NCBI GenBank assembly: GCA_963721805.1
Contig: CAVRJY010000001.1
Location: 352,001 to 416,000, forward strand
Direction: 5' to 3'
From: Nitrospirota bacterium
GTDB lineage: Bacteria > Nitrospirota > Thermodesulfovibrionia > Thermodesulfovibrionales > JdFR-86
Length of the DNA: 64,000 nt
The notes below the pieces were generated by a model. It was not told where the DNA came from and searched no databases. It worked only from the letters and a program-made list of their open reading frames with translations. Position 1 is the stretch's first letter; each line of letters opens with the position of its first letter. Positions 2,661 through 60,783 of the stretch are shown here, in pieces. The position numbers and the translations under genes are program-made.

Positions 2661-2953
2661 ACTACAAGAGCCATAGAAAAGAGCTTCTGAAGGATAAGGC
2701 GGTCAAGGCGGAGTTCGACAGGCTCCGGCCTGAGTACGAGCTTGCCAAGAGCCTGCTAGAGCAGCGCATGAAACTGAAGATGACACAGGCTGAGGTTGCA
2801 CAGAAGGCAGGGATGCCCCAGTCCACCATCGCCCGCATCGAGGGGCTGACTCACGGGGTCCCGAAGATTTCTACCCTGATAAGAATAGCCGATGCCCTGG
2901 ACGCCAAGCTTGTGGTGCGCCTCGAATCTGTAAGGAAGGTTAAACACGCATAG
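2657..2953 (+). CDS. HigA-like XRE HTH antitoxin
   Basis: MTQAEVAQKAGMPQSTIARIE HTH; ATGA overlap with the toxin. Confidence 0.9.
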   Translation: MNYKSHRKELLKDKAVKAEFDRLRPEYELAKSLLEQRMKLKMTQAEVAQKAGMPQSTIARIEGLTHGVPKISTLIRIADALDAKLVVRLESVRKVKHA

Positions 2954-2958
2954 AAAAT

Positions 2959-3503
2959 GGCCCCCATTAACCAGAGTTAGTCGTAAGTTAGTAGAAAACG
3001 CACGAGCCTGAATTTTTCCTATGAACTACGGTTTATATATGAACCAAAGTTTGGTGTTCTTTGGTGTATAGTGGTGCGATGAGTAAGATAGGATCATATC
3101 TGATGGGCGGGGAGAGGGCGGCGGGATGCCGCGCCGCTTGTTCGGATAATGGGCCCAAAAACGCGTTATTTATCCGAACATCCGAACAAGGCAGCGCTGA
3201 TAAAATGAATAAATACGCAATGTTACGCCCAGTATTGTCCCAAACATCCGAACGGAACCGGCAAAAACGCGCGCGCACGCGCGCGGAATGCGTAACTATA
3301 CCTAAGCGCGGACATCAGAACATGCTTTTGACCTTGGGGGGTCTGGGGGGATCCGACGTTGGCCTCCCCACCCCCGGGAGCGCGAAAAATCGTCTTCAGA
3401 CTAGGAAGCATTTGAAAATAGCCCGCAAGTGTACTGAGACGTACTCTGGAGGGTTATTTTCAAATGGTGACGACGTATCAAGCGATTTGGCGCGCTTTCA
3501 AAG
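2959..3503 (+). repeat. Long (~545 bp) form of the GTAC-hairpin element
   Basis: Aligns along its length with the reverse complement of 58083-58619. Confidence 0.85.
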
Positions 3504-3621
3504 GCGGTTCCCCTTGAAATGGGAGGCTGTACTTGTGCTATAAATTTAGCTCTTTGCCGCTAGTCCCCTCGGGGCGGCGGCTTCCCGGTCTTTTGGGCTG
3601 GGAATCCACAAGGAGGTGTAA

Positions 3622-14137: not shown

Positions 14138-14165
14138 CGAAAGACGTCACGGGTAAAAAACTAAT

Positions 14166-14462
14166 TTAGCGTTGTGGTGCTTCAGGCGCAGGCGCTCCCG
14201 GTGCTCCCGGCGCTCCCGGCGCTCCCGGCGCTCCCGGTGCTCCTGGTGCTCCCGGCGCTCCCGGCATAGGTGCTGGCTCAGGTGCTGGCGCAGGTGTTCC
14301 CGGCGCACCTTGTGCTCCCGGCGCTCCCGGTGCTCCTGGTGCTCCCGGTGCTCCTTGTACTCCCGGCGCATGCGCAGGCGCCTCCTGGTTCTGGCAACCG
14401 ACAACAAGTGCCATTGCCAGGACCAGTATCATTGATAGCGTTATAGCCCAGAATTTCTTCAT
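14166..14462 (-). CDS. Small lipoprotein with collagen-like (Gly-Ala-Pro)n repeats
   Basis: MKK signal, lipobox LVVG-C, two GAP tracts from 9-nt tandem repeats. Confidence 0.85.
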   Translation of the reverse strand: MKKFWAITLSMILVLAMALVVGCQNQEAPAHAPGVQGAPGAPGAPGAPGAQGAPGTPAPAPEPAPMPGAPGAPGAPGAPGAPGAPGAPGAPAPEAPQR

Positions 14463-14472
14463 ATTGCTTAAC

Positions 14473-15068
14473 GAAAACCATGCCAGTATGCCCCGTGGCT
14501 TGCCACGGGGATGAATGGCATCCCTGCCGGGGGGATGTAAGGGGGGCTGGAAGTCCCCCTTTCCCGCCGAGGCAATTGCGGGCTATCATGAGGCATGGGG
14601 TTACGCAGGACGAGTCACGCTGTATATGACACCGGGTACCATCTGGTATGGTGTCCTAAGTATCGCAAGAGACTGTTCGCGCAAAGTTACATGCGCGAGC
14701 GGTGCGCGGAACTTTTCAGGGAGATAGCTGAAGAGTATGAATATGAGATAGTGGAGATGGAAGTGGCGGAGGACCATGTGCATATATTTCTATCGTTCCC
14801 GCCACGGTACTCGATAGGGGTGGTGGTCAGAACCCTGAAAAGTATCAGCGCCCGTGAGCTGTTCAAGCAATACCCATCGCTGAGGCAAAGACTATGGAAG
14901 GGTGAGCTGTGGGAGGATGGGTACTTTGCGCGGACAGTCGGGGACAGCTTGACCTCGGAAATGATCCGCAAATACATACGCGGCCACAGAGCAGAGAAGC
15001 AATTGCCTGCGCAGCTGGACTTATAGCTGCGCCACGGATGCCCCGTGGCTTGCCACGGGGAGCTTCAC
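14473..15068 (+). mobile_element. IS200/IS605-family element (tnpA only)
   Basis: Identical hairpins CCCCGTGGC-TT-GCCACGGGG at 14491-14510 and 15041-15060; right end TTCAC; left end after TTAAC is inferred. Confidence 0.85.
14595..15026 (+). CDS. tnpA: Y1 HUH transposase
   Basis: YHLVWCPKYR, DHVH, LWEDGYF, catalytic Tyr in KYI. Confidence 0.95.
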   Translation: MGLRRTSHAVYDTGYHLVWCPKYRKRLFAQSYMRERCAELFREIAEEYEYEIVEMEVAEDHVHIFLSFPPRYSIGVVVRTLKSISARELFKQYPSLRQRLWKGELWEDGYFARTVGDSLTSEMIRKYIRGHRAEKQLPAQLDL

Positions 15069-34835: not shown

Positions 34836-35254
34836 ATTAACCGCTGTTTATAAATATTTTCGAGGGCCGCACTTTTTTACAAACCTCTGTTATTAATATA
34901 AACCGTAGTTGGATCGACATTTGCGCCGGGGTATGCTTCAATACGTGATGATGCTCGGATGGGTATTTTTGAGAGCGCGGAAAGGGCGGCCGGAGCCGAT
35001 GGGATACGCGGAAAACGTTTCTGAACGCCTGAACACGGGGGTCGAGAAAAAGCGATGAATTCCGCTGTGTTAGATCATGTTTTCTTCGTTCATTTGAACG
35101 CTCTAAAAAAATACGCGCGGCCGTGCGCAGTAAGTACATATATAACTAAGCCGTTGACCGCTCTAATCATGCCGTTGACCTTGGGGGCGCGGGGGGCGAC
35201 CTTTTTCCGTGCCCCCCGAAAGCGCGGCCAAATCGGCTTCAGACAAGGCAGGGC
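34836..35254 (+). repeat. Diverged long-form repeat element, left part (interrupted by IS30)
   Basis: ATATAAACCGTAGTT, CTGAACGCCTGAACA, GCCGTTGACC...GAAAGCGCGGCCAAATCGGCTTCAGAC. Confidence 0.75.
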
Positions 35255-36349
35255 CGCGGATTGTAATGTGAAGTGCAACACCTGTGAAAGAAAAAGCCCA
35301 TCGTCATCCTGTTCTGTTAGAGTCAAGTACCAACCAGACGAAACAGAGAGGGAGGGACGATGGGCTACAGTCATTTTAGCATTGATGAGCGGGAGGGCAT
35401 CGCAAGGATGCGTTATGCGGGGGTGAGCATACGTGAGATCGGGCGCCAGCTTGGCCGCTCGCCATCGAGCGTGAGCCGGGAGCTGCGGCGCAACACGAAG
35501 AAGTCTTTCTATGGCGCGCACGCCGCAACCGTGCTCTATGTCCGCCGAAGGCATTTTGCGAGCAGACGCCTGAAGCGCTGGCCGGACGGCCTGATCGGCT
35601 ATGCGATGGCGGGACTTTGCAGGCGTTGGTCGCCGGAGCAGGTGTCGGGCCGCCTTAAGCTTGACCATCCACATAGCACAGAGATGCGGATATCCTTTGC
35701 CACGCTATACAGATGGATACGGCAGGACAGGGCGATGGGGGGCTCGATGCATCGCATGCTGAGGCGTAAGGGAAGGAGCTACAGAAAAGCCCGGGGGCCT
35801 GAGACCAGGGGCCGGTTCAATGGGGCGTTGAGCATCAGGCAGCGCCCCGAGATCGTGGTCCGGAAGGGACGCTTCGGGGATTGGGAGGCGGATACCGTCT
35901 ACGGGTTCGACGGGAAAACGTGCATCGCAACGTTTAACGAGCGCAAGAGCCTCTACCTTATATCGAGGAAGATGCCGAGGCCCGGCTCGGAGGCGTTGAG
36001 GGAGGCCGCCGTATCGGCGCTGGGAGGCCTGCGGCAGGGCATGCGTATGACCATGACCGTGGACAGGGGCAGCGAGTTTGCATGCTACAGGGACTTAAAA
36101 TACATGATGGGGATCGACGTATACTTCGCCGACCCCTATTGCTCATGGCAGCGCGGCCAGAACGAAAACCTCAACGGGCTGCTGCGGCAGTACTTTCCGA
36201 AGGGGATCGACTTCAACACAGTAACGCAGGAGCAGCTGGATCGCGTCGTTGATGAGATTAACAACAGACCAAGAAAAACGCTGGACTACAGGGCACCCGC
36301 CGAGGTTGCGGCAAATGCGCGCCTGTTGCACTTGGCTTGACAATCCACT
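35255..36349 (+). mobile_element. IS30-family insertion sequence (1095 bp)
   Basis: Imperfect 26-bp IRs (GGATTGT...AAGTGCAACA); probable 2-bp GC duplication. Confidence 0.92.
35360..36340 (+). CDS. IS30 DDE transposase
   Basis: HTH LGRSPSSVSRELRRN, WSPEQ, GDWEADT, DRGSEF, QRGQNENLNGLLRQYFPKG. Confidence 0.96.
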   Translation: MGYSHFSIDEREGIARMRYAGVSIREIGRQLGRSPSSVSRELRRNTKKSFYGAHAATVLYVRRRHFASRRLKRWPDGLIGYAMAGLCRRWSPEQVSGRLKLDHPHSTEMRISFATLYRWIRQDRAMGGSMHRMLRRKGRSYRKARGPETRGRFNGALSIRQRPEIVVRKGRFGDWEADTVYGFDGKTCIATFNERKSLYLISRKMPRPGSEALREAAVSALGGLRQGMRMTMTVDRGSEFACYRDLKYMMGIDVYFADPYCSWQRGQNENLNGLLRQYFPKGIDFNTVTQEQLDRVVDEINNRPRKTLDYRAPAEVAANARLLHLA

Positions 36350-58619: not shown

Positions 58620-58879
58620 GGCAGAGAGTTCGAACCAACCGAATCCGGCAGGATATCCGCGCAGTGATAATGAGAATCACAGTCGCCCGCAGCGGGTTAA
58701 CTGCGCTTTCCCAATAAGCCATTGATGTTACCCCATCCCCGGCGGACATTACGATTTGTAACATAAGCTGATTGCCCTCCCCAAATATTCCTTTAAAATC
58801 AATGGATAGCCCTCTGGCAGCCTATTTGCTTGGTTTATCGCATGGTTACGTTACATTCATCCGGGGCTCTGAGTTGCTG

Positions 58880-60783
58880 ATGCCTAAAGAGCAGCACGAT
58901 ATGTGCGAAAACATCGGGGAGATGCCGCCCTTCAGGTTCATGGAGCGCGGGATGCTCAAGCGGCTCTGCCGGGGCATGGAGGCCGAGCAATACGCAATAG
59001 GCGAGGAGGTCCCGGCCGCTGACGAGTCGGTCGTAGGCAACCTGCGCGTCGTACAGTCCGGCGCGATCAAGCGCTATCTCGTAGGCCAGAACGGTGAGCT
59101 CATCCCTGTGGACGTCCTCGGCCCCGGCGACAACTTCGGCTTCATCCAGAGCCTGCACGAGGAGTACCGCAAGGTAAAGGCCATAGCGACCGAGCCCACG
59201 GTCTGCTGCATGATACCCATGGAGGACGTGTTTGCTGTCCTGAGCGAGAAGCCCTCGCTGCCTGAGCTATCTGACCGCCAAGGGACAGGCGGTATACGAG
59301 GCAGCGGCCGAGCGAGCGCGCCATGAGGGCAACGCCCTGATGGGCGGCGAGAAGCTCCTGTTCATCACGACCGTCGGGCGAGATACTCACGCGCGAGGCG
59401 GTCACGGCGCGCGAGTCCGTGACGGTAGGCGAGGCCGCAGCTATGATGTCGGAGCACGGCATCAGCTCGCTTGTCGTGCTCGACGCCGGGGGCGCACCGG
59501 TCGGCATCGTCACGGACCGCGACCTCAGGGACAAGGTGCTCGCTCGCCGCCGTAGCCCTGAGGAGCGCATCACGTCGGTTATGACCTCGATTGTCGTGAA
59601 GGCCGAGGCCTCCGAGTACTGCTACGAGGCCCTGCTTCGGATGATCCGCTATAACGTCCACCATGTCGTCGTCTTGGAGCACGGGGAGTTAAAAGGCGTG
59701 GTGACGAACCACGACTTCATGCTCCTGCAGGGCGTCTCTCCGCTTGCGATACTCAAGGAGATGGAGGCCCAGCTCCGGGCCCGCACCGCGGTGACCGCAT
59801 CGCGCGGGATAGAGCAGCTCGTCGGGCTGCTTGCCCGCGACGGCGCGCGCGCCACGAGCATCACGCGCATCATCGCCGAGATGAACGACCGCCTCGTGAT
59901 ACTTGGCGCTGGAGCAGGCCGAGGCCCGCCTGGGCCGGCCGCCCGTGCCCTACTGCTGGATAGCCTTCGGCAGCGAGGGCCGCAAAGAGCAGACCTTCCG
60001 CACCGACCAGGACAACGGGATCATCTACGCCGACCCCTCGTCCGAGGCCGAGGCCGGCCGCTGCGAGGAGTACTTCGAGGCGCTCGCCGAGGCGATGGCC
60101 GAGACGCTCGAGCCGCATAGGGTTCCCGCCCTGCCCGGCCGGGTACATGGCGACTAATCCGAAATGGCGGCGTCCGCTTAGTCAGTGGAAGCGGTCCTTC
60201 ACGGACTGGATCGAGACCCCGACGCCCGAGGCCGTGCTCTCCTCGCTGATATTCTTCGACTTCCGCGGCATAGGCGGCGACCTCTCGCTTGCCGCCTCAC
60301 TGCGCGAGCACCTGCACCACGCTATAGAGGACAAGCGCATATTCCTGGGCGCTATGGCCAACGTGATCACCAAAAACGCCCCGCCCGTGACGATCTTCGG
60401 GGCGCTAAAGCTGGAAAATACGCCCAAGGGCACGTTGAACCTCAAGATCAAGGGCTCGGCCCTCGTAATCGATATCGTCAGGCTGCTGAGCCTGGAGCTC
60501 AAGACCGAGGGCCACTCCACGGTCGAGCGCATTGCACGCGCTCCGCGGCAGGCACTCGATCATCGACACCTATGGCGACGAGCTCGAGCAGGCCTTCGAG
60601 CTCACGATGATGCAGCGCATCCTGCACCAGCACCGCGCGATACAGGCCGGGCTCCAGCCGGACAACTTCGTCAGGCCCGAGGAGATGGGGCAGTTCGCTC
60701 TAAAGCAGCTCAAGCAGGCCTATTCGCTTATAGGCCGCGTGCAGCAGGAGATCATGGACCGCTACAAGTTCATGATCGTATAG
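58880..60783 (+). CDS. cNMP-binding/CBS/DUF294 nucleotidyltransferase-like protein (several frameshifts)
   Basis: cNMP domain, GIVTDRDLR, FGSEGRKEQ..TDQDN, MATNPKW, IFFDFR across frames. Confidence 0.85.

Follow-up and report, generated by a model that had tools for sequence, protein, structure and literature searches.

The head of the long repeats in this 64,000-nucleotide window may well be, on sequence grounds, the promoter-operator of a helix-turn-helix (HTH) gene cassette that has lost its gene and become fused to a hairpin repeat. The window corresponds to G000:C1:352001-416000, part of a 2.78-Mb assembly with nine contigs and 60% G+C, and the long form is a ~540-base repeat with ~35 copies in this genome. 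The long form appears to be a composite, in which a non-coding module of ~350 bp has been fused to the head of a ~185-bp hairpin repeat. The first ~115 bp of the module would serve as the promoter-operator. This part would comprise two 5-6-5 dyads (ACTAA-N6-TTAGT at the edge and GGTTT-ATATAT-AAACC further in) and end in a -10 box located 6 nt before a near-invariant ATG, which is the layout of native leaderless genes. The module probably descends, without the gene, from a small cassette that is present once in the genome and also in related Nitrospirota. The putative parent cassette consists of operator repeats, a leaderless 127-aa HTH gene, GAAC iterons overlapping the gene end, and an A-run with a hairpin.

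From this layout, we infer a transcription start, a regulator, and a role of translation. A candidate dimeric DNA-binding protein would bind the dyad, RNA polymerase would start at or beside the A of the ATG, and the transcript would run through the hairpin repeat towards the adjacent gene. Ribosomes would translate the stop-free frame, and selection would favour the process of translation, which would spare the long leader premature termination or folding, and not a protein product.

Architecture and copy number of the heads

Two type-A long forms in the window share one plan, GGTTTATATAT(G/A)AACC followed by TATAGT, six bases, and ATG (Table 1). The earlier note had described this arrangement in both copies with the palindrome centred 41.5 bp upstream of the A of the ATG, and all of its elements are present at those places. 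In copy 1, the core dyad is self-complementary at 14 of 16 positions and has its centre at 3037.5. The A of the ATG is at 3079, and the spacing is therefore 41.5 bp. A consensus scan finds no sigma-70 -35/-10 pair at the head of either copy, consistent with the claim that there is no good -35. Sigma-54, ECF-type, and conventional -35 readings of the head were dropped by eye because the spacings do not fit. The diverged copy at 34836 retains half of the dyad with a different, type-B-like spacing, also as claimed; at ~35254, a transposase-like insertion truncates its hairpin repeat. A 326-aa transposase-like ORF (35255-36340, start ~35360) interrupts the hairpin repeat there, and near-identical ORFs of this type interrupt or follow two other heads.

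In alignments, block 1 is where the repeat begins abruptly on its 5' side and meets upstream genes that vary from copy to copy. In copy 1, a third GTTAGT half-site lies 11 bp on from the block-1 dyad and is followed by AGAAAACGCACG. On the minus strand, 3264-3285 reads as a G+C hairpin followed by TTTTT, a terminator-like feature that is kept in all long copies. The abundant hairpin repeat (SRE) consists, in order, of ATGC-TTTGACC, a G+C hairpin, and a ~120-nt long hairpin with inverted termini.

Table 1 Features of the long forms in the window, and positions of type C heads.
Feature	Position	Strand	Remarks
Copy 1, type-A long form	2966-3503	+	From sequence reading and alignment
Block 1 of head, copy 1	2966-3004	+	Dyad ATTAAC-CAGA-GTTAGT; family consensus ACTAA-N6-TTAGT
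Extended dyad ACTacGGTTTATATATGAACCaaAGT, copy 1	3025-3050		From sequence reading
Core dyad GGTTT-ATATAT-GAACC, copy 1	3030-3045	.	16 bp, 5-6-5; candidate operator/activator site
-10-like hexamer TATAGT, copy 1	3067-3072	+	TG directly 5'
ATG, copy 1	3079-3081	+	Six bases after TATAGT
ATG plus 154-codon frame, copy 1	3079-3543	+	Spans whole repeat; stop 40 nt past repeat
Inverted pair GTTCGGATAA ... TTATCCGAAC, copy 1	3140-3187	+
Tandem iterons ATCCGAAC ATCCGAAC, copy 1	3172-3187	+	End of inverted pair
Third iteron CATCCGAAC, copy 1	3245-3253	+
A-run plus CGCGCGCG-CA-CGCGCGCG, copy 1	3264-3285	-
Degenerate fourth iteron CATCAGAAC, copy 1	3313-3321	+
Abundant hairpin repeat (SRE), copy 1	3322-3503	+
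Diverged B-like long form	34836-35254	+	Half-dyad ATTAATATAAACC
Copy 2, second type-A long form	58610 to ~58084	-
Core dyad, copy 2	58545-58530	-	16/16 self-complementary
TATAGT, copy 2	58508-58503	-
ATG, copy 2	58496-58494	-	Dyad centre 41.5 bp before A
Type C heads	G000:C1:664106, C1:1455870, 12 further loci; also L065:2093-2186

Copy 1 is followed by rpsF and comes after the HicA/HicB and Gp49/XRE pairs of an AT-rich island (303-2953) that lies directly behind tRNA-Pro (228-302). The island also contains two TTG-start membrane-protein ORFs, one with a sub-cut-off 8xMP match, and no integrase is seen in it. A divergent gene (58772-59323, plus strand), 163 nt from the head of copy 2, encodes a 184-aa protein that has a cyclic-nucleotide-binding domain and lacks a recognised HTH; this is probably a coincidence, though notable given the CRP/FNR idea. 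Elsewhere in the window, 9-nt tandem repeats at 14158-14388 (GCTCCCGGY and variants, 12 registers) probably encode a Gly/Ala/Pro-rich repeat.

BLAST of 2940-3560 against the genome returns 218 HSPs, and the copies are 67-85% identical. Profile searches of the genome place the 5' module at 35 loci, a count that misses some diverged B-like heads such as 34836. The module is joined to the hairpin repeat 282-580 nt downstream at 31 of these loci, stands without it at three, and is a fragment at one. The 3' hairpin repeat is found at 230 distinct loci genome-wide. The 16-mer dyad, scanned genome-wide as the earlier note had proposed, occurs with up to two mismatches at 31 sites in the 2.78-Mb genome (25 exact and six with one mismatch). 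All 31 sites lie within 5' modules and none elsewhere, against ~0.0001 exact matches expected from base composition. Therefore, the dyad arrangement is real and above chance, and, since it is confined to these repeats, it does not mark an ordinary regulon.

Alignment of 34 heads and a script count define the head types. The 17 type-A copies are only 67-77% identical overall, and all 17 have TATAGT or TATATT as the -10 box. The spacing from box to ATG is 6 nt in 15 copies, 7 in one, and 5 in one, and the -10-box/6-nt/ATG arrangement is kept in 16 of the 17. The dyad centre lies 41.5 bp before the A in 15 copies (two of them without the left half-dyad), 42.5 in one, and 40.5 in one. Type B (~14 copies) contains a 10-nt insertion and no canonical -10; its box, TTCAAT, is located 5-6 nt before the ATG and lacks the key A at position 2. 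The dyad centre of type B is at 50.5 in six copies and at 51.5 in three by script, and five more have ATGATG at the aligned place. The spacing that was predicted to be conserved in other long copies is thus conserved in type A and altered in type B. The ATG is the most constant feature of the 34 aligned heads, with an invariant G and an A and T that are each conserved in at least 90%. It is accompanied by a 5' box, ATGAnnnnGATAnnnnCATATTTGA, that is common to types A and B and has a similar counterpart in type C, and the AUG sits in a possible 4-5-bp stem.

The organism's own genes use the same architecture. In a set of 246 well-scoring genes that each have one possible start, TANNNT ends 6 nt before the start codon in 11 genes and 7 nt before it in 10, compared with a mean of 2.5 genes at the other 38 offsets. 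These genes (21/246, ~8%) mostly have no Shine-Dalgarno sequence, which suggests that leaderless transcripts are common in the lineage. Many of the genes with the leaderless signature have TATAAT without an obvious -35. Type A, with TANNNT 6-7 nt before the start, fits the native pattern exactly; type C comes near it, and type B does not fit.

At 29 of 34 long-form loci, the next gene past the tail runs in the same direction as the repeat (median gap 45 nt), and at the other five it is convergent. Of 185 short copies, 140 face a convergent gene past the tail, mostly with the repeat abutting its stop. At least one gene downstream of a long form keeps a conserved, plausible promoter of its own in the gap, which speaks against the head being necessary. 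The proposal that the long form is an expression unit draws partial support from the box/6-nt/ATG geometry, its recurrence in an unrelated head type with a real gene behind it, the match to native leaderless genes, the orientation, and the open frame described below; the type B spacing speaks against it.

The HTH cassette and the 5' junction

A third and unrelated head type, type C, is found in 14 copies, in repeats of medium length. It presents three to five tandem GGAAC-N2-GTTCC dyads in 14-bp steps, and in 12 of the 14 copies TATCAT is followed by five bases and ATG. At C1:664183-664563, the ATG of type C opens an intact 127-codon HTH gene, with TGGACG-N18-TATCAT-N5-ATG upstream. A second copy of the gene in the genome has two in-frame stops. 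The product of the intact gene combines a helix-turn-helix at the N terminus with two long helices, and its AlphaFold model (pLDDT 73.5) consists of a three-helix HTH plus two long helices. Four database homologues from other assemblies share 50-77% identity with it. Matches to the gene are present in 17 of 301 genomes of the order, this genome included, often several per genome; they occur in five of 10 genomes of the same family and in seven of 12 of another. The outside homologues, the recurrence across these genomes, and the shared 3' block downstream show that the 127-aa HTH gene is a real gene.

In all relatives of the HTH gene, the last codons read the first GAAC iteron (SERLN or SEHPN), and tandem GAAC iterons, a third iteron, and an A-run lie downstream. 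The long form in the window has the same 3' block, including the tandem iterons, the third iteron, and the A-run with its CG hairpin (Table 1), and no gene, which points to the long forms as gene-less descendants of the HTH cassette.

The HTH family is uncatalogued. Its protein matches sub-threshold HTH families only in Pfam, weak DNA-binding families only in PHROGs, and the HTH part only in a PDB profile search. The AlphaFold model has no Foldseek matches at E <=0.001, and no relatives are found in viral_contigs. Look-alikes in the Atlas are small, mostly phage HTH proteins, which we take as a lead only; a small terminase would be a guess. The proposed link between the heads and this cassette with iterons makes the HTH protein a concrete candidate for binding.

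Nine identical 344-aa rve/HTH transposase genes lie 76-152 nt from tandem dyads, in either orientation, upstream of nine of the 14 type C heads (e.g., L066:945-1977). We suspect that this transposase targets CTAG in CCTAGG inside the heads. The genome also contains six identical copies of a 603-bp IS200-type element that encodes a Y1 transposase, one of them in the window (14622-14981, plus strand). Each copy is located directly after TTAAC or CTAAC, and the target of this insertion sequence is TTAAC. Three copies adjoin a repeat head, two of them right after the GTTAA half-site in block 1. Mobilisation of the repeat by the Y1 or rve transposases was considered and rejected, because both belong to ordinary insertion sequences that have ends and targets of their own.

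A BLAST-type search for the long form in 40 relatives gives no matches. The exact dyad pattern is absent from genome_contigs, and its sole match in metagenome_contigs is AT-rich and unrelated. A scan for the block-1 pattern gives one match, in a Nitrospirota MAG, which is the only DNA match outside the genome. A sequence-only covariance model of the head, run on 100 relatives, gives one believable partial match, to block 1 only; four further hits (E 0.002-0.004) are left out of this count.

This property of block 1, which follows the same arm-N6-arm plan and is the only part present in another genus, is also what would be seen if the head were chiefly a recombination or docking junction acting at the DNA level. 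In that case, the dyads and iterons would bind a recombinase or accessory protein, accessory genes would be exchanged at the 5' edge, and the -10 box and ATG would be a leftover of the cassette's former gene. We consider this possible but doubtful, and it is compatible with promoter activity.

The junction can be viewed in a homeologous pair. Contig C9 (13.7 kb) is a ~85%-identical homeologue of G000:C1:854000-858500 with different accessory genes between, and stems either from a second lineage within the bin or from an old duplication. The DNA to the left of ACTAAC is unrelated in the two, and homology starts exactly at block 1. The module is ~95% identical compared with 85% for the flanks, the hairpin repeat is swapped for another variant, and the frame is open in both. 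Therefore, the head is old, conserved, and a junction with variable DNA.

The neighbours of the 35 heads bear on the junction reading in both directions. Toxin-antitoxin-type pairs, among which we count some DUF-family pairs that we regard as toxin-antitoxin-like, lie at most 70 nt from the edge at seven heads. Other neighbours include three IS200 copies, DUF559, SRAP, and pentapeptide-repeat genes, and unannotated small ORFs. In the 34836 copy, the module end GCCGTTGACC is followed by a complete short-repeat head with the same 10-mer. However, several heads are located beside housekeeping genes (BioW, ArgG, and FMN reductase), no recombinase gene is seen among the nearest upstream genes of the 35 heads, and the Y1 and rve genes nearby belong to the insertion sequences described above. 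In addition, a junction leaves the orientation bias, the match to the native leaderless geometry, and the avoidance of stops unexplained.

Frame, putative transcript, and short copies

In 11 of 16 type-A copies, frame 0 stays open all the way from the ATG to the tail, whereas the other frames contain 4-13 and 1-9 stops. The ORF reaches or passes the tail in 13 of the 16, and in four of 11 type-B copies. Rare stops, meaning those confined to one or two copies, are absent from frame 0 and number 13 in frame 1 and 19 in frame 2, although the mutational opportunity to create a stop is equal (363, 402, and 386 for the three frames). In the first ~260 alignment columns, the corresponding numbers are 0, 7, and 17, and these columns provide the sole independent evidence for the open frame. 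Further downstream, that frame, anchored at the tail, also lacks stops across the final 231 nt of 10 of 15 type-C/medium copies whose own ATG frame has already ended, and across the final 126 nt of 78% of 106 short copies. This openness weakens the translation reading.

The frame avoids stops yet is not protein-like. Diversity is flat across codon positions (0.247, 0.269, and 0.252), with no third-position or synonymous excess. The frames of different copies are out of phase over 30% of aligned pair-columns, and gap events number 13, 7, and 4 for lengths 1, 0, and 2 modulo 3. The codon-usage score is negative in 16/16 copies. In the C9/C1 pair, differences in the frame are distributed 15, 13, and 14 by codon position (5 synonymous versus 22 non-synonymous), compared with 19, 17, and 44 (29 versus 33) in the neighbouring gene, where the third position is in excess.

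It is accordingly improbable that type A encodes a leaderless protein, which would have ~140-160 residues, be very basic and probably disordered, and act on the repeat in trans or in cis. The near-invariant ATG, the frame open to the tail in most copies, the rare stops (0 versus 32 in the other frames), and a recurring N-terminal pattern, M-x-x-I-x-x-Y/I-L, are what such a protein would leave. Against these stand the flat third position, the phase changes, the foreign codon usage, a stop codon that falls in unrelated flanking DNA, and the equal openness of the 3' part in copies without the ATG frame. In addition, all six database hits at E <=0.001 come from the genome's own contigs, and no Pfam family is found for the frame.

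A non-coding RNA gene with its start at the ATG and its end at the hairpin repeat would agree with the conserved 5' box and with the compensatory pairs; the latter are found only in the hairpin repeat. Between the ATG and the hairpin repeat, predicted helices are invariant and show no covariation. The long form has no plus-strand terminator, its sole terminator-like site being on the opposite strand. Rfam returns only tRNAs at the gathering score, and zero credible matches on 2900-3620 with E up to 10. We regard such a gene as decidedly improbable. In the promoter-operator reading, translation of the leader would instead be the selected property.

The short copies share the 3' end of the long ones, with 216 of 242 profile hits ending at the same point. 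The earlier note took the ~200-bp copies to be 3' portions of the long ones, which does not hold. The profile hits start in discrete classes (35 at 0-19, 17 at 190-209, 120 at 340-359, 21 at 390-409, and 18 at 450-469). The main short class (120 of 242 hits) has a conserved head terminus of its own, TCTAATCAATGCCGTTGACC, and differs from the long form upstream of ATGCC. Because the ~185-bp copies have their own terminus, fall into discrete classes, and show the opposite orientation preference, they are not pieces of the long form, and the short copies are complete units. For the same reasons, and given the age of the copies at 67-85% identity, it is most improbable that the long copies are masters of a retro- or transposable element and the short ones their 5'-truncated offspring, for all that they share a 3' end. 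A ~60-nt module recurs before a subset of short copies and consists of a G+C hairpin, GGGGCCACGGGCCCC, followed by TCTCACTATTCGCGCCACAGCGCTCATCTC.

Implications and comparison with known systems

If the head is an active promoter, ~30 core genes would stand behind one repeated, possibly co-regulated switch. They would include rpsF-ssb-rpsR in the window, and, as putatively identified by N-terminal sequence, murA, ychF, and an alanine dehydrogenase gene. Active heads would constitute a large example of repeat-borne promoter spread, and the frame, free of stops yet not protein-like, would offer a clean natural example in which translation itself is under selection. A broader picture, which we offer tentatively and think rather unlikely, combines control and junction: the heads would form the ends of a platform for gene capture that is dispersed over the chromosome and specific to this Nitrospirota lineage, with hairpin-bounded slots, accessory genes swapped at ACTAA-N6-TTAGT, and an operator-promoter derived from the HTH cassette that fires a translated non-coding leader into a core gene. 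Such a platform would be a functional parallel to the integron, without a known integrase.

At class II CRP/FNR-dependent promoters, the dyad is centred 41.5 bp before the start and the -35 is poor. The CRP site follows a 5-6-5 half-site plan, and the half-sites of CRP and FNR are TGTGA/TCACA or TTGAT/ATCAA. The heads resemble these promoters in the dyad 41.5 bp before the presumed start, the poor -35, and the 5-6-5 plan. They differ in that the half-sites are GGTTT/AAACC, which do not match the CRP/FNR consensus as generally known, in that the type B dyad is at -50.5/-51.5, and in that no dyad is found outside the repeats. The genome encodes two PF13545 (HTH_Crp_2) proteins above the cut-off and one below, which says nothing about specificity.

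The integron platform consists of attI plus Pc. As in an integron, a conserved module with a putative promoter meets variable small genes at a fixed junction; many of these genes form toxin-antitoxin pairs, and hairpin repeats are located nearby. Unlike an integron, the system described here shows no integrase among the nearest upstream genes of the heads and no cassette array, its sites are dispersed, and its putative promoter points away from the variable genes.

Like REP/REPIN sequences, the hairpin repeats number in the hundreds, are intergenic, and lie mostly at gene ends, and the genome contains Y1 genes. In the REPIN/RAYT system, a Y1 gene is flanked by the repeats that it mobilises; here, the six Y1 genes lie in the 603-bp IS200-type element, which has its own end hairpins and is not flanked by the repeats. 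The family resembles MITEs in being small, non-coding, and multi-copy, with 35 heads, 230 hairpin-repeat loci, and no protein-like signal. The long form has no terminal inverted repeats, as its start (ACTAAC...) and end (...GCGCTTTCAA) are unrelated; the hairpin repeat itself has inverted termini.

Some subtypes of Correia (CREE/NEMIS) elements have sigma-70-like promoters, IHF sites, and RNase III-sensitive hairpins, and RPEs keep open frames, as described in PMC10969869. The Correia elements of Neisseria and other promoter-bearing MITEs are, like the present family, abundant non-coding intergenic repeats with inverted termini, often just 5' of genes (PMC10969869). In contrast to Correia elements, the promoter-like part here is a separate 350-bp module at one end, outside the inverted termini, and the long form, taken whole, lacks terminal inverted repeats. 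In addition, the module comes in three exchangeable head types, has a leaderless geometry with a stop-free frame, and probably derives from an HTH-gene cassette. Reused or 'mobile' promoters are near-identical upstream regions before unrelated genes in one genome, according to PMC3575422. In contrast to these, the putative promoter described here is linked both to a structured repeat and to an accessory-gene junction.
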